Positions 3,403 through 37,307 of a stretch of 38,495 bases of DNA are shown piece by piece (position 1 is the first letter of the stretch; every line of letters starts with the position of its first letter). A program made the position numbers and the translations under genes. Where the stretch lies: positions 1-38,495 of the forward strand of contig JBAXXI010000004.1 of assembly GCA_037127955.1 (NCBI GenBank). The letters are read 5' to 3'. Source of the DNA: Candidatus Berkelbacteria bacterium. GTDB lineage: Bacteria > Patescibacteriota > UBA1384 > UBA12157. Under the pieces are notes generated by a model. The model ran no database searches. It worked only from the letters and a program-made list of their open reading frames with translations, and had not been told where the DNA came from.

Positions 3403-3702
3403 ATGTGCGATAAAAAAAATTGTACCAATCCGCTTTATTTTCATTCTAAGAGTCCAGATGGACTCAAGTTTTATCGAGAAAATTGTGGCCAGATTTTTCT
3501 TGTGCCTAAAGATAAAATCCAACTTGAGCGGTATGATGGTTACGGGGCAAATACTGAATGTAATCAATGTATAAACTATTTAACCTGTTGTGTCCCAAGT
3601 TATGATAATGGTTTTATCTTTCGTTGTGCTTGTTGTGGCAGGTTTTATCGACTTACCCTTTTGGACTTTATTCATATAGACGGTAAACCCGTCTGTGCCT
3701 AA
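3403..3702 (+). CDS. Small cysteine-rich protein (99 aa, 11 Cys), putative zinc-ribbon-like, unknown family
   Basis: Strong SD AGGAGG (3389-3394) 8 nt before the ATG. Cys patterns: CxxxxC, CxxC, CC, CxCC and a C-terminal Cys. Its own terminator follows. Confidence 0.6.
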   Translation: MCDKKNCTNPLYFHSKSPDGLKFYRENCGQIFLVPKDKIQLERYDGYGANTECNQCINYLTCCVPSYDNGFIFRCACCGRFYRLTLLDFIHIDGKPVCA

Positions 3703-3707
3703 CTTTC

Positions 3708-3734: not shown

Positions 3735-3799
3735 ATTTATATTTGATTTGACAAAACTTTGATAATTTGCGAAATTAAAGATAGAAAATAAGACTTTTA

Positions 3800-3872
3800 G
3801 ACTTATAGATCTATAGTCGTTTAGATACAGTCTAAAATTTAAGCTACTATAAGTCTGTAGATCTAAAAGACT
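3800..3872 (+). promoter_or_regulatory. Operator-like pair of inverted repeats in the leader of the 3896 gene block
   Basis: The 8-bp palindrome TAGATCTA occurs twice (3806-3813 and 3858-3865, 52 bp apart). The first is flanked by GACT...AGTC words and the second by AGTCT...AGACT. AGACT/AGTCT words occur at 3791, 3799, 3829, 3852, 3868 and 3876. The region lies between TTGACA at 3748-3753 and the SD AGGAGG at 3884-3889. Confidence 0.4.
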
Positions 3873-3895
3873 ATAAGACTATTAGGAGGTTTTGA

Positions 3896-4867
3896 ATGAA
3901 CGCAGCGGTTATTGGAATTGGAAATATGGGTAAGCATCATGCTCGAAATTATTCGGAGATTCAAGATGTGGATCTCGTCGCAGTGGCTGATCTAAATGAA
4001 GAATTAGGTCAAGAAACCGCTGAACGGTTTGGTTGTAAGTACTATAAAAATTATCAAGAAATGCTTGATAATGAAAAAATTGATGTGATTACAATTGCCG
4101 TGCCAACCAAGTATCACAAGGATGTGGCTTTGGCTTGTATTGAAAAAGGCATCAATATTTTACTTGAAAAACCAATTGCGGCCACAGTCGAAGAGGCTAA
4201 AGAGGTGGTGACGGCGGCTAAAGCTAAAAATGTTAAATTCACAGTTGGTCATATTGAGCGTTTTAATCCAGCCGTGATTAAGTTAAAAGAATTGATTGAT
4301 AAGGGTGAACTAGGCGATATTGTCTCGATTCGAAATACTCGTATCGGGCCAATGCCAACGCAAATTAAAGATGCCAACGTGGTCATCGACATTGGTGTCC
4401 ACGATATTGACTTGATTAACTGGATGTTGGGTAAGTTGCCAACCGAAATTATGGCTACTGGCGGTAATGCTTTGAATAAAATCCGTCAGGATTATGTCGA
4501 CGTTTTCTTAAAATACGGCAATGTTTCCGGGGCAGTTCAAGCTAACTGGATTACACCAGCTAAGGTTCGTCGTATGTCGGTTTGCGGAACTAAGGCTTAT
4601 GTTGAATTAAACTTTATTACTCAGGAATTAGTGCTTTATGAAACCAAATATTCACTAGAGTACGATAATTTTGGTGAATTTATCATTAAATTTGGTGAGC
4701 CAAAAGAAGGTGAATTAATCGCGGTTGACAATATTGAACCTTTAAATGCGGAAATTTGTGCTTTTATCAAAGCGATTAAGGAAGATACTAGACCAGTAAT
4801 GACCGCGGATGAAGCGATTGAGGCTTTGGATGTAGCCTGTAAAGTCGACACGATGGTTAGAGGATAA
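3896..4867 (+). CDS. Gfo/Idh/MocA-family NAD-dependent oxidoreductase; by context a WlbA/WbpB-type UDP-HexNAc(A) 3-dehydrogenase
   Basis: N-terminal Rossmann motif AAVIGIGNMGKHHARN, an EKP motif (LLEKPIA), 323 aa. Immediately upstream of WbpD-like and WbpE-like genes. Confidence 0.7.
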   Translation: MNAAVIGIGNMGKHHARNYSEIQDVDLVAVADLNEELGQETAERFGCKYYKNYQEMLDNEKIDVITIAVPTKYHKDVALACIEKGINILLEKPIAATVEEAKEVVTAAKAKNVKFTVGHIERFNPAVIKLKELIDKGELGDIVSIRNTRIGPMPTQIKDANVVIDIGVHDIDLINWMLGKLPTEIMATGGNALNKIRQDYVDVFLKYGNVSGAVQANWITPAKVRRMSVCGTKAYVELNFITQELVLYETKYSLEYDNFGEFIIKFGEPKEGELIAVDNIEPLNAEICAFIKAIKEDTRPVMTADEAIEALDVACKVDTMVRG

Positions 4868-4871
4868 AATT

Positions 4872-4954
4872 AATTCTCAATTTTCAATTCTCAATTTCCA
4901 ATTAATTATTCAATTGGGAGCTAAATGGGAACTGAAAACTGGGAACTGGAAACT
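4872..4954 (+). repeat. Two arrays of heptad repeats forming a long imperfect dyad
   Basis: AATTYYC x4 (4872-4899) and GRRAACT x4 (4927-4954, reverse complement AGTTYYC). An apical stem CCAATT (4898-4903) / AATTGG (4912-4917) lies between the arrays. Confidence 0.6.
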
Positions 4955-9372: not shown

Positions 9373-10450
9373 GAAAAATTTAGAAGAGGTAGGGGTTTTC
9401 GTTGGTTTTAATGGTGCTGGCGCCGCCGGAATTTATAGTTATACCCGGATTTTAAAGTCTCGGAATATAAAACTGGATTTTTACGGAATTGGTCAAACTT
9501 ATTTTAATCAACCAGTTGACATTTTATTAAAGTTTCCGAAAAATCCTGTTAAATCGTTATGGTCAAGGTTGAAATTGTTTTTCGAACTTTTGCCCAAATA
9601 TAAGATTTGGCATTTCAATTATTCACAAACCTTGTTTTTTTATCCTTTGAATCTGTTACTTTTAAAATTATTTGGTAAAAAAATAGTGGTGACTTTTCGA
9701 GGATCTGATTGCGAAACCGAACTAGATTTTACCAAAACCAACCCTATTATTTTGGCTCATCGTGATCAATGGCCATCATATTTTAAAAATTTTCATCATT
9801 TGACCTGGCAAGCTAAAATCGCTAAAAAAATCAGAACAGCTTTTTTAAGTGATTGGTCTGATACAGCAGTAATTAATGGGCCATATTTAGCCAGTTCTGT
9901 GCCAAATTACGACCTAATTATTCCTTACGCTCGAGATTTGGGTAAAATTAATCAGTTTAAGATTCAAAATAAAAAAATTAATAAAAAGTTAGTTATTTTG
10001 CATGTTCCGAGTGATCCAGAGGTCAAGGGAACTGTTTATATTGAAAAAGCTTTTAAGGAATTGGCTGATAAATATCCGGATTGTGAATTTAAAATTTTAG
10101 ACTTTATGCCATATGATCAATTGCTTGGAGAAATGGCCAAAGCTGATATTGTGGTTGATCAATTACTGGTTGGCTGGTATGGTGGCCAAGCGGTTGAGGC
10201 AATGGCTCTTGGTAGCGCAGTTATTTCTTTTGTAGAGCCGTCATATTTGGAAAATATTCCATTTGGTAAAACATTGCCAATCGCTAATACTAACGTTTTT
10301 ACTTTTAAGGAAGACCTTGAGGTTTTAATTAATTCTCCAGAGAAAATTCAAAAATTAATGAATGAAGGTCCGGCCTTTGCTGCAAAATATCATGATTCGA
10401 CAAGGATTGCCGATGCTTATCAAAAGGTATACGAAGAGGTTTTAAAGTGA
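9356..10450 (+). CDS. Putative GT-B glycosyltransferase (GT4-like C-terminal domain)
   Basis: The C-terminal GGQAVEAMALGSAVISFVEP resembles the GT4 E-x7-E region. The ORF is open from TTG 9350. It overlaps the previous gene's end, and its stop overlaps the next GTG. Confidence 0.5.
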   Translation: MPPKNKKNLEEVGVFVGFNGAGAAGIYSYTRILKSRNIKLDFYGIGQTYFNQPVDILLKFPKNPVKSLWSRLKLFFELLPKYKIWHFNYSQTLFFYPLNLLLLKLFGKKIVVTFRGSDCETELDFTKTNPIILAHRDQWPSYFKNFHHLTWQAKIAKKIRTAFLSDWSDTAVINGPYLASSVPNYDLIIPYARDLGKINQFKIQNKKINKKLVILHVPSDPEVKGTVYIEKAFKELADKYPDCEFKILDFMPYDQLLGEMAKADIVVDQLLVGWYGGQAVEAMALGSAVISFVEPSYLENIPFGKTLPIANTNVFTFKEDLEVLINSPEKIQKLMNEGPAFAAKYHDSTRIADAYQKVYEEVLK

Positions 10451-19201: not shown

Positions 19202-19227
19202 TTAATGAATCAAATATTATAGGTTAG

Positions 19228-19246
19228 TGAATCGATCGCGGAAATT
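19228..19246 (+). repeat. Copy of the TGAATCG..CGCGGAAATT intergenic motif (wzm-wzt spacer)
   Basis: TGAATCGATCGCGGAAATT. It shares ATCGCGGAAATT with 29971-29982, 36128-36139 and 36195-36206. Confidence 0.6.
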
Positions 19247-19263
19247 TTAACTTTATTAAAATT

Positions 19264-29911: not shown

Positions 29912-30031
29912 ATGAAGGTAATGACAATCGTGGGGACTCGTCCGGAAATTATGGATTCATCTGCGGATGAATCGCGGAAATTTCCTCTAACCATAAATTA
30001 TATTAGCACGATCAAGAAAGGTTCATTATGA
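29912..30031 (+). other. 39-codon upstream ORF: a duplicated SD plus first 13 codons of the downstream 2-epimerase, fused to a repeat element
   Basis: Encodes MKVMTIVGTRPEI MDSSADESRKFPLTINYISTIKKGSL. Its TGA (30029-30031) overlaps the epimerase ATG (30028-30030). SD-like AAGGAA lies at 29899-29904. Confidence 0.6.
29951..29982 (+). repeat. Short copy of the ATGGATT-hairpin-AATCGCGGAAATT element
   Basis: ATGGATTCATC TGCG GATGAATC GCGGAAATT. 8-bp stem 29954-29961 / 29966-29973 with a tetraloop. Confidence 0.6.
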
Positions 30032-35162: not shown

Positions 35163-36119
35163 ATGCTTTTAAGAAAGAAAATTGCGGTAGTCGTTCCGGC
35201 CCATAATGAGGAGAAATTAATCGGTAAAGTTATCCAGACCATGCCGAATTTTGTCGATCTAATTATTATTGTTGATGATGCTAGTACTGATCAAACGGCG
35301 AAAAAAGTGCGCGAAGCGGCTAAGAAATTTAATAAAAAAGTTGAGCTAATTATCAATCGAAAAAATTTTGGTGTAGGTGGTGCGATTGTGATCGGATATG
35401 AATTTGCTCTAAAAAAGAAAATTGATTGTACGGCTGTCATGGCAGGGGATGCGCAAATGGATCCAACCGAGTTAAAAGATATTTGTTTGCCAGTAGTTAG
35501 GAATGAAGCAGAGTATGTTAAAGGTAACAGGTTAATTTATGGTAAGGCCTGGCAAATGATGCCAAAAATTCGTTATTTGGGAAATTCTGCCTTATCGCTT
35601 TTGACTAAAATCGCTTCTGGTTACTGGCATGTAGCCGATAGCCAAACTGGTTATGCAGCCATTTCTTATAAAGCCTTAAGCGAAATGAATGTTGGAAATC
35701 TGTACAAACAGTATGGTTTTCCTAATGATGTTTTGGTTCATTTAAACCTTATAAATGCTAGGGTGAAAGAGATTCCAATCAAACCAATATACCATACTGA
35801 TGGTAAATCTGGTATACGTATTTGGAAAGTTATCCCAACCATTTCCTGGTTATTAATTAGACGATTTTTTTGGCGATTAAAGAAAAAATATATTATTGAA
35901 GATTTTCATCCGTTAGTTTTTTTCTACTTTTTTTCTATGATTTTGACTGTTGTTGGTTTGTTTTTATTGGTCCGATTGATTAATATCATGGTTACAACTG
36001 GTCATACTCCACCAATGAATGCTTTAGCTTTGTTCTTTTGTTTGATAATGGCTCCTCAGTTCTCATTCTTTGCGATGTGGTTCGACATGGATTACAACAA
36101 AGACTTGAGAGTGAAATAG
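35163..36119 (+). CDS. Membrane-anchored GT2 glycosyltransferase, GtrB/DPM1-like (polyprenyl-phosphate sugar synthase candidate), paralog 1
   Basis: IAVVVPAHNEEKLI, IIVDDASTDQT, MAGDAQMDP. Two C-terminal TM segments. 318 aa. Confidence 0.65.
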   Translation: MLLRKKIAVVVPAHNEEKLIGKVIQTMPNFVDLIIIVDDASTDQTAKKVREAAKKFNKKVELIINRKNFGVGGAIVIGYEFALKKKIDCTAVMAGDAQMDPTELKDICLPVVRNEAEYVKGNRLIYGKAWQMMPKIRYLGNSALSLLTKIASGYWHVADSQTGYAAISYKALSEMNVGNLYKQYGFPNDVLVHLNLINARVKEIPIKPIYHTDGKSGIRIWKVIPTISWLLIRRFFWRLKKKYIIEDFHPLVFFYFFSMILTVVGLFLLVRLINIMVTTGHTPPMNALALFFCLIMAPQFSFFAMWFDMDYNKDLRVK

Positions 36120-36257
36120 TTGTTGTAATCGCGGAAATTCAGTATTCGGAATTATGGATTACAACAAAGACCTAAGAGTGAAATAGTTGTTGTAATCGCG
36201 GAAATTTTCAAAGTTTTGAAAAATATGGATTACAATAAGGATCTAAGAGTGAAATAA
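36087..36257 (+). repeat. Tandem repeat (67 bp, 71 bp and a partial third unit) of the last 10 codons of the GT2 gene plus hairpin and AATCGCGGAAATT
   Basis: Units start at 36087, 36154 and 36225, and each begins ATGGATTACAA. The first 53 bp of units 1 and 2 differ at 2 positions. 11-bp stems GATTACAACAA/TTGTTGTAATC lie at 36090-36100/36120-36130 and 36157-36167/36187-36197. Confidence 0.85.
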
Positions 36258-36353
36258 AACTTGTCTGATCGGAGCGCGGAATCACTGATAAAATTGTCAA
36301 AAAGAACTAAAACTGAGATAATAAATTAAATATAACTTATCGAGACTATTATT

Positions 36354-37307
36354 ATGATTAAAAACAAAACTATCGGCGTGGTTGTGCCGGCTCACAATGA
36401 AGAATTGTTAATTGCAGAAACTCTAAGTGGTATGCCAGATTTTGTTGATAAAATTATCGTTGTAAATGACGCTAGTACAGATAAGACCAAAGAGATTATT
36501 CTGCAGCAAAAGGATTTAAAAAACAGGATTGTTTTAGTTGATCATCTAAAAAACAAGGGTTTGGGCGCAAGTTTAGCAGATGGTTATTTAAAGGCTCTAG
36601 AGTTGAATATTGATTGTATTGCTGTGATGGCTGGCGATAATCAAATGGATCCAAATGATCTTGAAAGTATTGTGATGCCGATTGTTGATGAAAAAGTCGA
36701 TTATTCTAAAGGCAGCCGCTTGTTAGCGAAAGATGTGGCTAAAATAATGCCTAGATACCGTTTTATAGGTAATATTATTGCGACTTTCTTAACAAAATTT
36801 GCGACTGGTTATTGGCAGTTAGTCGATCCGCAGTGTGGCTATACGGCGATTTCAAATAAGGCTTTGGCTAAAATTGACATTGCTACCTTAAAAAAAGGTT
36901 ATGGCTATAACGCTGATATATTATTTAGATTGAATTTCTTTAATTTTAAGATTACAGATGTTGAGGTAAAACCGGTTTATGGGCGCGAAAAAAGTGGCAT
37001 TAAATTTTTTAGTTATACAATGGATGTTAGTTCATTTTTATTAAAATTGTTTTGGCGCCGTTTGAGTGAAAAATATTTCTTCCGTGATTTTAATCCGTTA
37101 GGTTTATTTTACCTATTTAGTTTTATCAATTTAATCTTGATTATTATCCCATTAACTATTAGATTCTTCATGCTATATTTCCAGACTCATTTGGCTCCGA
37201 GCACAACATTGATTATCTTATCTTTCTCTTTAATGATGGGATTTTTCTCGTTTGGTTTTGCTATATGGTTAGATATGGAATCGAATAAAGATTTGTTCGT
37301 GAGGTAA
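36354..37307 (+). CDS. Membrane-anchored GT2 glycosyltransferase, GtrB/DPM1-like, paralog 2
   Basis: IGVVVPAHNEELLI, IVVNDASTDKT, MAGDNQMDP, two C-terminal TM segments. The C-terminus LDMESNKDLFVR resembles FDMDYNKDLRVK of paralog 1. Confidence 0.65.
   Translation: MIKNKTIGVVVPAHNEELLIAETLSGMPDFVDKIIVVNDASTDKTKEIILQQKDLKNRIVLVDHLKNKGLGASLADGYLKALELNIDCIAVMAGDNQMDPNDLESIVMPIVDEKVDYSKGSRLLAKDVAKIMPRYRFIGNIIATFLTKFATGYWQLVDPQCGYTAISNKALAKIDIATLKKGYGYNADILFRLNFFNFKITDVEVKPVYGREKSGIKFFSYTMDVSSFLLKLFWRRLSEKYFFRDFNPLGLFYLFSFINLILIIIPLTIRFFMLYFQTHLAPSTTLIILSFSLMMGFFSFGFAIWLDMESNKDLFVR

Follow-up and report, generated by a model that had tools for sequence, protein, structure and literature searches.

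The window analysed here is a stretch of 38,495 nt from a Candidatus Berkelbacteria bacterium (assembly GCA_037127955.1, contig JBAXXI010000004.1, forward strand). Two glycosyltransferase genes, GT2-1 and GT2-2, are separated in it by an array in which the last 10 codons of GT2-1 recur in tandem. The features of this region are:

35163..36119, + strand: GT2-1, an ORF for a 318-aa family-2 glycosyltransferase of the polyprenyl-phosphate type (PF00535, E=2.4e-19)
36087..36119, + strand: tail copy 1, functional, ATGGATTACAACAAAGACTTGAGAGTGAAATAG, doubling as the start of unit 1 (ATGG) and as its 5' arm
36090..36130, + strand: hairpin 1 of unit 1, in which 36090-36100 pairs with 36120-36130 (11 bp, perfect)
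36131..36153, + strand: core and hairpin 2 of unit 1, 'type A', GCGGAAATTCAGTATTCGGAATT (covariance model CM R1, 42.8 bits)
36154..36186, + strand: tail copy 2, a free-standing 10-codon ORF and the start of unit 2
36157..36197, + strand: hairpin 1 of unit 2 (11 bp, perfect)
36198..36224, + strand: core and hairpin 2 of unit 2, 'type B', GCGGAAATTTTCAAAGTTTTGAAAAAT, stem ATTTTCAA/TTGAAAA(A)T (CM R1, 37.6 bits)
36225..36257, + strand: tail copy 3, a terminal stub with neither an arm nor an intact core or hairpin 2 behind it
36276..36285, + strand: degenerate core-like GCGGAATCAC, 19 nt past copy 3, missed by CM R1
36294..36322, + strand: sigma-70-like promoter match before GT2-2 (TTGTCA-17-GATAAT, TG-extended, 10/12; a consensus match only)
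36354..37307, + strand: GT2-2, a paralogue of GT2-1 (42% aa identity) with the C-terminus ...MESNKDLFVR

Anatomy of the array

The three tail copies (36087-36119, 36154-36186 and 36225-36257) each begin with ATGGATTAC and end in a stop codon, and all translate to MDYNKDLRVK. They differ by TTG/CTA, AAC/AAT, AAA/AAG and GAC/GAT and in the stop (TAG/TAA), so that the first-pass annotation of this DNA was right to call every difference synonymous or stop-to-stop; the ending that it gave for the second glycosyltransferase, MESNKDLFVR, is likewise correct. Back-translated as a degenerate pattern, the tail matches the window at these three sites only, with 0 matches expected from shuffles. TRF describes the array with a period of 67, 2.5 copies and a score of 238. 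Stop 1 and ATG 2 lie 34 nt apart, one less than the 35 nt given earlier, and stop 2 and ATG 3 lie 38 nt apart, as given.

Hairpin 1 of units 1 and 2 is a perfect 11-bp stem (GATTACAACAA/TTGTTGTAATC) with the stop codon within its 19-nt loop, followed by GCGGAAATT, in agreement with the original description of the stems and of the motif shared behind them. An 11-nt arm match was reached in 0 of 2000 arm shuffles. Comparison of the arm complements showed that unit 3 lacks a complementary arm. Units 1 and 2 share 51 of 53 nt, and this identity breaks off sharply past the GCGGAAATT core; the 14 or 18 nt left in each unit belong to two distinct types of A/U hairpin.

GT2-1 has weak matches to DPM synthase, ArnC, AglJ and PpgS. 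Its tail, ...WFDMDYNKDL, is near-invariant among homologues from many phyla. The 311-nt stretch 36050-36360 reads identically in an NCBI MAG, in two metagenome assemblies from JGI and in an assembly from ENA. The source samples are JGI Ga0194052 and Ga0194054 and SRR7053532 to SRR7053536. Because the same 311 nt occur in four independent assemblies, the array is not an assembly artefact, a concern that had accompanied its first description. Three Logan contigs terminate within a 32-nt exact repeat. Variation in copy number, which had been suggested as a switch for downstream expression, finds no support: the four assemblies agree exactly, though they possibly represent one population.

Recurrence in other CPR populations

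A search of related genomes revealed the same architecture in at least five further CPR populations, where it likewise lies at the orthologous GT2 genes. The recurring order is a GT2 tail, an arm complementary to that tail, GCGGAAWTT, an A/U hairpin and the next tail. The arrays are:

L052/L089: 3 tail copies, period 63
L090/L100/L101: 2 tail copies
L092: 2 tail copies
L093: 4 tail copies
L094: at least 2 tail copies

Only a single tail is present in the close relatives L001, L050, L070, L098 and L102, indicating that the arrays are sporadic and dynamic. Among the arrays compared, the terminal copy never has an arm or a core and is joined to the native downstream context. In L100 the terminal copy (copy 2, TATAACAAGGATTTAAGGGTCAAGTAG) has its own hairpin, followed by a canonical terminator. 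Tail-arm complements of 7-11 nt occur in unit-bearing genes only.

Synonymous-only divergence of the tail copies

Over nine copy-to-copy comparisons, covering the window and the other CPR arrays, 36 of 36 nucleotide differences are synonymous, although the silent share of single substitutions in the tail is only 14%. In the window, the probability that random substitutions would all be synonymous is 0.034 for copy 1 versus copy 2 and 0.00075 for copy 2 versus copy 3; over the nine comparisons the per-pair values range from 0.23 down to <5e-5. The pattern is far beyond chance.

Start codons are missing from the L052 and L100 copies and from copies 2 and 4 of L093, which have an in-frame TGA 3 codons upstream. 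These copies are equally synonymous-only, with 4 to 6 differences each (4/4, 5/5, 6/6). Because the start-less copies are just as purely synonymous, current translation is not the general cause of the pattern. Copies 1 and 2 of L100 have different bases at 6 of 27 nt, so that their silent sites are near saturation. These tails must have diverged while functional, since an untranslated copy decaying in place would be unrecognisable. Judging from the aligned copies, in-place neutral decay cannot yield the near-saturated silent-site divergence of some pairs. The earlier view that neutral decay would not be expected to give the pattern is upheld, and the pattern extends to copies that cannot be translated. 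Homologues of 64-81% identity all have the tail MDYNKDL[KR]VK unchanged, from which it follows that diverged paralogues or alleles would carry identical peptides.

A dispersed family of leader repeats

The hairpin/GCGGAAWTT part of the array belongs to a dispersed CPR repeat family that is apparently undescribed. A unit consists of an A-rich stretch, AT[AG]G, hairpin 1, (T)C-GCGGAAWTT, a U-rich/SD/A-rich hairpin 2 and ATG. Units occur singly or 2-3 in tandem, directly ahead of real start codons, in Berkelbacteria and related MAGs, and tandem units of ~44 nt are common. Hairpin 2 carries the Shine-Dalgarno sequence (SD) and ends 0-2 nt short of ATG or AT[AG]G. CM R1, a covariance model built from array cores with the window units partly among its building sequences, gave 30-41-bit matches ahead of real genes in other CPR genomes and no match in about 75 non-CPR loci. 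Strict pattern matches number at least 9 in one complete Berkelbacteria genome (CP011213), with several in four other CPR MAGs.

Both hairpins covary, and the units are conserved. In hairpin 2, 87.9% of cells are paired against 70.7% in shuffles, 0 of 500 shuffles being equally good, and double changes occur at 6 of 9 pairs. Hairpin 1 has at least 5 pairs in 24 of 26 units, against a mean of 5.0 in shuffles. An AT[AG]G start is found in 22 of 26 other units; the window units have an ATGG start and a GTAATC/GCGG end, and their hairpin 1, with its 11-bp stem and 19-nt loop, is longer than that of the family. In L129, units lie between a cobalamin riboswitch and the ATG. In ordinary units, the peptides encoded by mini-ORFs are unrelated and 5-11 aa long. 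The core is similar to the Haemophilus USS followed by A/T tracts.

Rfam gave no match to the window at gathering score, nothing relevant at E<=10 in 35950-36450, and nothing over typical units of L107, L119 and L129. A literature search found nothing relevant on CPR uptake sequences, Berkelbacteria intergenic repeats, or CPR SD or upstream motifs.

In 58 kb of this genome there are three unit loci, all in the glycan cluster and all on the coding strand. Apart from the array, the features at these loci are:

19219..19263, + strand: single unit between the genes for an ABC-2 permease (wzm-like) and an ABC ATPase (wzt-like), running ATAG..., GATCGCGGAAATT, hairpin AATTTTAA/TTAAAATT and ending at ATG 19264 (CM R1, 33.5 bits)
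29912..29950, + strand: epimerase stub, codons 1-13 (MKVMTIVGTRPEI) of the UDP-GlcNAc 2-epimerase gene, with its own RBS-like AAGGA
29951..29982, + strand: unit right behind the stub, with ATGG, hairpin GATTCATC/GATGAATC and then GCGGAAATT (CM R1 weak, 18.3 bits)

The real UDP-GlcNAc 2-epimerase gene starts at 30028, and 6 of 6 differences between it and the stub are synonymous. A GT2 head adjoins an inverted unit in L102. In both cases the gene-internal breakpoint resembles the unit junction (GGAAATT/AT and AT/AGG). No further gene-end stubs beside units were found in 13 other CPR loci. One head fragment is annotated as a gene in the public assembly.

Known classes of element considered

Several familiar classes were considered and rejected. 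An intrinsic (Rho-independent) terminator is not indicated: the region 35800-36500 contains 0 terminator-like sites, and the A/T-rich stems are set apart from the T run by GCGGAA. Like trp and his leader-peptide attenuators, the array has short ORFs in alternative hairpins upstream of genes. Unlike them, it lacks regulatory codon runs and a terminator, and its peptides copy a protein tail, several copies (in L052, L100 and L093) being untranslatable for want of a start codon. Although alternative pairings exist, the suggested leader or attenuator peptide was rejected in its classical form, no terminator or classical attenuator features having been found.

For integron attC sites, TTACAAC/GTTGTAA is a poor fit to the R''/R' core sites (RYYYAAC ... 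GTTRRRY) and is absent in other arm types; for an integron cassette array, there are no ORFs between the sites and no integrase in the 58 kb. A diversity-generating retroelement is at odds with mixed transitions and transversions at silent sites, no amino acid change, and no reverse transcriptase found. In a CRISPR array one would not expect both halves of the unit to be conserved yet variable, and no cas genes are present. A DNA uptake sequence of the USS/DUS type occurs about once per kb in both orientations, whereas the motif here, at three loci in 58 kb, is too sparse and keeps to the coding strand. A sigma-70 promoter inside the units is represented by one 9/12 match in the array (TTCAAA-18-TACAAT), and the regional count is below the shuffle mean. 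A tRNA-like reading of GCGGA... was dropped, as ARAGORN finds nothing.

Integration of phages and islands duplicates the 3' ends of tRNA, tmRNA or protein genes at attachment sites. As in such att-site fragments, the upstream GT2 copy completes the gene, older copies would be pushed downstream, and copies may differ through different lineages of origin. However, the GT2 copies are 34-43 nt apart (merely 34-38 nt in the window), no integrase or island is present, and the tail and the type-A module have 0 matches in viral contigs, on which count a phage or mobile origin was also rejected.

Origin of the extra tails

The explanation preferred here, held with about even confidence, is that the extra tails remain from GT2 genes that were once complete, whether paralogues since deleted or alleles since swapped, and that the fusion took place at a unit/ATG junction. 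The array consists of three tandem units of a CPR-specific intergenic leader repeat, predicted to be transcribed within 5' UTRs or intercistronic RNA. The unit starts at the ATGG of a Met codon ten codons ahead of the GT2-1 stop; the 5' arm of hairpin 1 and its loop are supplied by the GT2-1 tail, and its 3' arm by the 11 nt past the stop. Copies 2 and 3 would then be stubs of formerly complete, expressed GT2 genes rather than independent genes. Those genes may have been tandem paralogues lost by later deletion, or else alleles displaced when glycan-gene modules were exchanged by recombination, with the 3' end of the unit, which normally stands before a start ATG, becoming fused to the ATG of a GT2 tail. 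The copies would differ only synonymously because each tail evolved as the near-invariant end of a working protein. Of the options raised at the outset, the one with the best support is that the tails are scars of diverged GT2 ends that used to be functional; the synonymous-only pattern, the near-saturation and the epimerase stub speak for it. The next GT2 paralogue of L001 has a unit-like element as its leader, which is the intact state expected ahead of a deletion.

Several observations count against this explanation. Neither a pre-insertion allele nor a locus in which a unit connects two complete GT2 genes of the MDYNKDL subfamily was found. Sliding-window and third-position identity of GT2-1 to seven relatives show no break and hence no mosaic signal. 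GT2-1 and GT2-2 are equally near to L001 (80% and 81% aa identity) and so give no sign that the gene body was replaced. The idea that copy 3 retains an ancestral downstream region was dropped, as the alignment to the L001 intergenic region scored 43.5 against a shuffle mean of 43.0. Each arm fits its own tail variant perfectly, and for this a further process, template switching or selection, has to be assumed. That the precise ATG-to-ATG junction recurs in several lineages would reflect either horizontal spread or selection.

Plain tandem duplication in place, by replication slippage at the hairpins with subsequent neutral drift and perhaps a phase-variable copy number, is very unlikely as an account of the whole pattern. 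Copies 1 and 2 are the same in L092 and L052 and almost so in L093, and the repeat family typically forms tandem duplicates. However, all 36 differences are synonymous, silent sites are near-saturated in several pairs, neighbouring units differ in hairpin-2 type, and the four assemblies have the same copy number. In-place duplication as the sole process is therefore strongly disfavoured. Nevertheless, the identical and near-identical copies resemble its products, so that the preferred explanation needs two processes or more, duplication and import or deletion. Scarcely any probability attaches to selection of the decapeptide MDYNKDLRVK itself, whether translated to serve as a leader or arrest peptide or to mimic the GT2 tail. 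Purely synonymous divergence would be expected of such a peptide, and an ATG directly follows hairpin 2 in the window, L092, copy 3 of L093 and copy 2 of L094, at the position that real start codons occupy in the family. However, the start-less copies show the same pattern, the mini-ORFs of ordinary units encode unrelated peptides, and any SD ahead of copies 2 and 3 is weak or absent. The earlier proposal of selection on peptide or RNA structure thus divides: the hairpin units are real, covarying and conserved, but the peptide is no conserved independent product.

A functional RNA device is a somewhat more serious candidate, though still unlikely. The arms would toggle between the upstream tail, forming hairpin 1, and the downstream tail copy, with the core and hairpin 2 then enclosed. 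A ribosome reaching the end of GT2-1 would switch the fold and so affect processing, stability or re-initiation of downstream cistrons. Tail copies would be retained as alternative pairing partners or relay mini-ORFs. The minimum free energy fold of the whole array does pair arm n with tail n+1, both hairpins covary, and the units found elsewhere, whose hairpin 2 contains the SD, reach precisely to real start codons. In Berkelbacteria-type arrays every copy opens with ATG at the start-codon position of the family. The terminal copy of L052 overlaps the next gene via ATGA and the last copy of L092 (TAAAATG) ends 1 nt before the ATG of the next gene, suggesting coupling. However, pairing limits just 7-16 stem nucleotides, and many loop differences are still synonymous-only. 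In addition, the fold z-score of the array is modest (-1.6, sense strand), a terminator is absent, and close relatives manage without arrays. The last intact unit of the window serves copy 3 only, GT2-2 lying 96 nt further on with its own promoter-like site. It is quite improbable, on balance, that the unit (tail, arm, core and hairpin 2) is a tiny non-autonomous mobile or recombinogenic cassette homing into the ultra-conserved GT2 tail, supplying replacement tail codons that keep the target gene intact and pushing the older tail downstream with each insertion. The type-A module argues for it: the 23-mer of the window recurs identically in L095, in an unrelated context, and near-identically in L093 and L094, with sharp boundaries and differing left contexts. 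L100 and L052 share an identical 28-nt arm/core/hairpin 2 despite only ~55-60% DNA identity of their GT2 genes, and the switch of hairpin-2 type past the core in window units 1 and 2 indicates modular reassortment there. Units are dispersed as well as tandem within genomes, and stubs adjoin unit ends in either orientation. Against a cassette stand the want of any transposase, integrase or nuclease nearby, the absence of matches in viral contigs, and the lack of terminal inverted repeats and of a regular target-site duplication. Moreover, the arm fits each local tail variant, unlike a fixed mobile sequence, and gene fragments are missing from most units of the family.

Relation to known repeats and significance

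We know of no mobilising enzyme for the CPR units. The BOX elements of Streptococcus pneumoniae are short, structured, non-coding intergenic repeats (Croucher et al. 2011, PMC3049150). These, as well as REP/BIME, RUP and Correia elements, are dispersed and intergenic like the CPR units, with modules in variable tandem number, and the CPR units would share with BOX-type repeats co-transcription with neighbouring genes and the ability to affect them. In contrast to BOX-type repeats, to which they have no sequence relationship and no link through an Rfam match, the CPR units stand in fixed register before start codons with the SD inside hairpin 2, and one hairpin arm here is coding sequence, so that copies of the unit drag gene tails with them. 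The PeSL 'mobile regulatory cassettes' of T4-type phages combine a strong sigma-70 promoter with a terminator stem-loop (Arbiol et al. 2010, PMC2839356; PMC4122927). PeSLs and CPR units are alike in being small, conserved cassettes with a stem-loop that lie where genes adjoin in hyper-variable regions, and both are proposed to be short homologies for shuffling gene modules. Unlike PeSLs, the CPR units have no consistent promoter or terminator and lie in a bacterial glycan locus, not in phage; synonymous gene-end stubs have not been reported for PeSLs.

It is a tentative possibility, not a likely one, that the unit is a portable translation-leader cassette of a new kind, moving within and between CPR genomes and serving as a joint for swapping surface-glycan genes. 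If so, it would recombine at conserved gene ends and carry or regenerate the end of its neighbour, and the tail arrays would be footprints of such events and possibly ribosome relay ORFs. For annotation, such 10-codon 'ORFs' and 39-aa head fragments should not count as genes.

Finally, the CPR/Patescibacteria have tiny genomes, and their cell surface is essential for epibiotic life. To our knowledge, almost nothing is known of their gene-expression signals. A conserved, covarying two-hairpin element that lies at the ribosome-binding region of many genes and is not in Rfam offers a testable candidate for a signal in translation or RNA processing that is specific to the lineage. The synonymous gene-end stubs may preserve, in readable form, how genes of glycan loci were lost or exchanged, and could help to trace the reshuffling of surface-polysaccharide gene sets in uncultured bacteria.

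Tandem copies of a gene end

GT2-1 is an ORF for a 318-aa family-2 glycosyltransferase whose 3' end is ATGGATTACAACAAAGACTTGAGAGTGAAATAG. The first-pass annotation had reported that this 33-nt gene end recurs at 36154-36186 and 36225-36257 and that the three tail copies (MDYNKDLRVK plus stop) differ only synonymously; both observations hold, with six of six nucleotide differences silent or stop-to-stop. The 11-bp stem it described is likewise confirmed, GATTACAACAA/TTGTTGTAATC being perfect in units 1 and 2, where a 19-nt loop encloses the stop codon and GCGGAAATT follows, and the spacing from the first stop to copy 2 is 34 nt rather than the 35 nt given. The arm (the 3' strand of the stem) is absent after tail copy 3. 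TRF detects a single tandem array (period 67, 2.5 copies, score 238). Units 1 and 2 share 51/53 identity as far as the core, GCGGAAWTT, beyond which their A/U-rich hairpins differ.

35163-36119: GT2-1, ending in tail copy 1 (from 36087)
Unit 1: type A hairpin, GCGGAAATTCAGTATTCGGAATT
Unit 2: type B hairpin, GCGGAAATTTTCAAAGTTTTGAAAAAT
36354-37307: GT2-2, the paralogue downstream of the array

The sequence of 36050-36360 is the same in four of four independent assemblies; the array is therefore no assembly artefact, as had been considered possible, and copy-number variation, also proposed, is not visible among these assemblies. Three k-mer (Logan) contigs terminate within a 32-nt exact repeat.

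The contig comes from a Candidatus Berkelbacteria MAG, and the window is a single long same-strand gene cluster for surface glycan. Its products include sugar dehydrogenases, epimerases, an aminotransferase, a flippase-like protein, many GT4/GT2 enzymes, an ABC-2 permease/ATPase pair, an asparagine-synthase homologue, the two GT2 paralogues and a polysaccharide deacetylase. GT2-1 has weak matches to the polyprenyl-phosphate glycosyltransferase class (DPM synthase, ArnC, AglJ, PpgS), and its C-terminal ...WFDMDYNKDL is near-invariant among homologues from many phyla. No mosaic signal was found in GT2-1, and GT2-1 and GT2-2 are equally close to a related genome (L001). Other features were observed in the window and just upstream on the same contig (L103):

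L103 1-2000, about 8-10 kb upstream of the window, opposite strand: five consecutive small genes with T4SS_pilin/TrbC Pfam matches, a tandem paralogue array
L103 about 9580-9650, shortly before the window starts: run of atagacttatagatctatagacttttagactta, similar to the palindromes at 3780-3890 and beside a degenerate type-A unit that precedes the first window gene
3404-3703: small Cys-rich ORF (99 aa), alone within a 637-nt gap, flanked by a strong terminator-like hairpin (GGCCCCGGAGAAATCCGGGG plus T run) and a second hairpin (GAGGAGGTATTTTTGTACCTCC)
3780-3890, upstream of the gene at 3896: clustered palindromic repeats of type TAGACTTATAGATCTATAGTC
4872-4954, in the 97-nt gap preceding a hexapeptide acetyltransferase gene: short tandem repeats, AATTCTCAATTTCC x2.3 and TGGGAACTGAAAAC x2.1

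The TAGACTTATAGATCTATAGTC/atagacttatagatctatagacttttagactta palindromes could be an operator-like motif common to two promoters.

Tail arrays in other genomes

Species-representative genomes and JGI metagenomes were scanned for a GT2 tail followed by a second TAYAAYAARGAY 40-70 nt on, and the search also took in contigs of the closest GT2-1 homologues. The same GT2-tail architecture was found in at least five other CPR populations. Close relatives carry a single GT2 tail (L001, at 80%, L050, L070, L098 and L102), and the arrays are therefore sporadic among relatives.

GT2 tail arrays outside the window
L052/L089 (MAG binned as Saccharibacteria): three tail copies, period 63; terminal copy of L052 in ATGA overlap with the next gene
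L090/L100/L101: two tail copies; terminal copy of L100 with its own hairpin and a canonical terminator
L092: two identical tail copies; terminal copy TAAAATG
L093: four tail copies; 81% aa identity to the window gene
L094: at least two tail copies up to the contig end; 77% identity

The non-terminal units of all arrays share one order: tail, arm, (C/T)GCGGAAWTT and an A/U hairpin abutting the next tail. In each of them the arm is complementary to its own unit's tail variant, with which it covaries (GATTAC/GTAATC vs GACTAC/GTAGTC), and its register on the tail varies by unit, covering the D-Y-N, N-K-D or K-D-L-K codons. Perfect tail-arm complements of 7-11 nt are highly unusual compared with shuffled arms and are absent after six single-copy GT2 genes. 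The terminal tail copy never carries an arm or core and is joined to native downstream context.

In L102 (3950-3960) and L052 (2280-2290), the tail ...GTAAAATGA runs into the next gene's ATG (ATGA overlap) and thus doubles as the downstream gene's coupling region. A possible decayed stub, ATGGACTAAGGAAAGAT, follows the single GT2 tail of L096/L097 (3958-4075), with GCGG next inside a hairpin, GCGGCTCAGCCCCTTGAGCCGC; the site is possibly the eroded remains of an old unit.

A dispersed leader repeat family

Two further window sites beyond the array contain ATCGCGGAAATT, at 19235 and 29971. A single unit occupies 19219-19263, within the 62 nt that separate the ABC-2 permease gene from the ABC ATPase gene, and its hairpin 2 stops exactly at the ATPase ATG (19264), with no SD visible. 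An exact 23-nt type-A module is present in another MAG (L095) in an unrelated context, 3' of a TGCTATAAT box and 5' of a zinc-ribbon gene's RBS. R1, a covariance model of the core and hairpin 2, gave no convincing match across about 75 non-CPR GT2 loci and matches additional units at CPR loci.

A last scan, with the pattern TCGCGGAAWTTTT-N4-20-AAAAWTATG, returned at least nine matches in the complete Berkelbacteria genome CP011213. Several more came from two SRP050083 MAGs and from MAGs of UBA10118, Gracilibacteria and Peribacteria, and about 20 matches dispersed elsewhere look like chance. The ATG after the CPR matches starts real genes, including a 775-aa tRNA-synthetase-like ORF and genes for ribosomal protein L36, TsaD, a translational GTPase, an epimerase and others. 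Across the 14 loci of pattern matches, R1 identifies 33 units, often two or three in tandem at about 44 nt per copy. The consensus unit, preceded by A-rich sequence, consists of AT[AG]G, hairpin 1 and (T)C-GCGGAAWTT, followed by a U-rich arm, an SD-like GGAG/AGGA and an A-rich arm that ends at the ATG. AT[AG]G is present in 22/26 units, and hairpin 1 reaches at least 5 bp in 24/26 (shuffle mean 5.0). Hairpin 2 covaries: 87.9% of cells are paired vs 70.7% in shuffles, six of nine pairs have both-side changes, none of 500 shuffles is as good, and slid registers are clearly worse.

In CP011213 (L129 1167-1466), two tandem units separate a cobalamin riboswitch aptamer (43 bits) from the ATG and stand where the expression platform would be. 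The units therefore belong to the transcribed leader. No Rfam family matches the units and literature searches on them found nothing; this GCGGAAWTT/hairpin leader repeat family of CPR is apparently undescribed. Elsewhere in CP011213 (L120 7700-7830), three tandem variant units with core TCGGAAATT have a perfect TATAAT at each unit junction (…CAAATTATAATTAAGCC…), which hints that some units may carry a -10 box.

The window array is three units of this family. Its unit-start ATGG coincides with the Met codon of ...D-M-D-Y-N-K..., and hairpin 1 is larger here, taking in the GT2 tail and stop codon.

Gene-head stubs beside units

Every window intergenic region was compared with the heads and tails of the window's genes, and stubs, gene-end fragments outside the full gene, were found at two loci only, the GT2 tails and an epimerase head. 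Six of six differences between the epimerase stub and the real head are synonymous, and the break in the epimerase codons, CCGGAAATT^AT (^ marks joints), mimics the usual unit end.

29912-29950: first 13 codons (MKVMTIVGTRPEI) of the epimerase gene that truly starts at 30028
29951-29982, directly 3': unit with ATGG, GATTCATC/GATGAATC and GCGGAAATT

A 39-codon ORF at 29912-30031 fuses the stub to the unit; the public assembly lists it as a gene of 39 aa (L104 2602-2721). A second head fragment, of a GT2 (VISKSKIAVVVPAYN; …AVVVPAYN), is located about 60 nt 5' of the true GT2 start in Berkelbacteria RBG_13_40_8 (L102 2896-2964), a region that includes scaffold gaps (runs of N). It is synonymous in its conserved part and abuts an inverted unit (R1, 27.1 bits), with the joint AGAAATT^ATAGG on the unit's strand. 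No gene-end stubs were found at 13 other CPR loci with ordinary units; stubs therefore seem restricted to glycan loci, where gene content varies between relatives.

Origin of the tail arrays

The window pattern is real and statistically extreme. In nine comparisons between copies, eight of them of tail pairs and one of a gene head, peptide and stop are preserved in 36/36 differences, and only 14% of single tail substitutions would preserve them. The per-pair probability under random substitution runs from 0.23 (a single change) down to below 5e-5. Silent sites are near saturation in some pairs, with six changes in 27 nt in L100. Over so long a drift in place, an untranslated copy would be expected to gain many non-silent changes and indels. 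The near-saturated silent divergence therefore indicates that the tails diverged as ends of expressed GT2 genes and were later juxtaposed, and opposes simple duplication followed by decay. The first-pass suggestion of a selected mini-peptide fares no better, given that copies in L052, L100 and L093 begin within the tail (…AAAAT^ATAAC…, …GAAAT^ATAAAG…), lack a start codon, carry an in-frame TGA three codons upstream, and are just as synonymous-only.

The pattern is best explained as gene-end remnants within tandem units of the CPR leader repeat family, a composite model to which we give roughly even chances. Its anatomy and statistics are observed, and from them we infer the order of events. 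The usual unit terminus is a start ATG; in arrays the unit 3' end joins an ATG (or AT) inside the GT2 tail, and in L001 a unit-like element serves as the next GT2 paralogue's leader. Copies 2 and 3 would be the residue of complete GT2 genes once 3' of GT2-1, or replaced by it. Deletion would have removed tandem paralogues from the start ATG through the tail's ATG, or module exchange between genomes would have displaced alleles; in both variants, the short junction …AAAWT^ATG(G) and the unit core would supply the homology for recombination. Modular reassortment at the core is visible: type-A modules pair with three left-arm kinds, window units 1 and 2 match as far as the core and diverge beyond it, and L100 and L052 have an identical 28-nt arm, core and hairpin 2 beside GT2 DNA only about 55-60% identical. 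In-place tandem duplication, which is typical of the family, also plays a part, as the identical adjacent copies in L092, L052 and L093 show. The exact match of each arm to its own tail variant needs template-switch copying or selection for hairpin 1. No intermediate state for the remnant model was found, and the sequence 3' of copy 3 did not significantly resemble the L001 intergenic region.

It is less probable, and on balance unlikely, that the array is a translation-sensitive RNA structure or ribosome relay, even though the arms are able to pair with either neighbouring tail, units are located at ribosome-binding sites, and in two arrays the terminal copy shows start-stop coupling with the gene that follows. 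A small mobile cassette bringing replacement tails is slightly less likely again; neither an enzyme nor terminal repeats nor viral copies came to light. Terminator, attenuator, attC, DGR, CRISPR and att-site models each lack a defining feature here.

The closest likeness in working is to BOX, REP/BIME and Correia elements, which are small, interspersed, modular, structured bacterial repeats (PMC3049150), and the possible recombination joint recalls the PeSL regulatory cassettes of T4-type phages (PMC2839356). The CPR units have no promoter/terminator pair and keep a fixed start-codon register, and they have no sequence or Rfam relationship to these systems. The CPR family belongs to none of the four. 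The main value of the finding lies in this repeat family and in the stubs' record of glycan-locus turnover, and less in the decapeptide.
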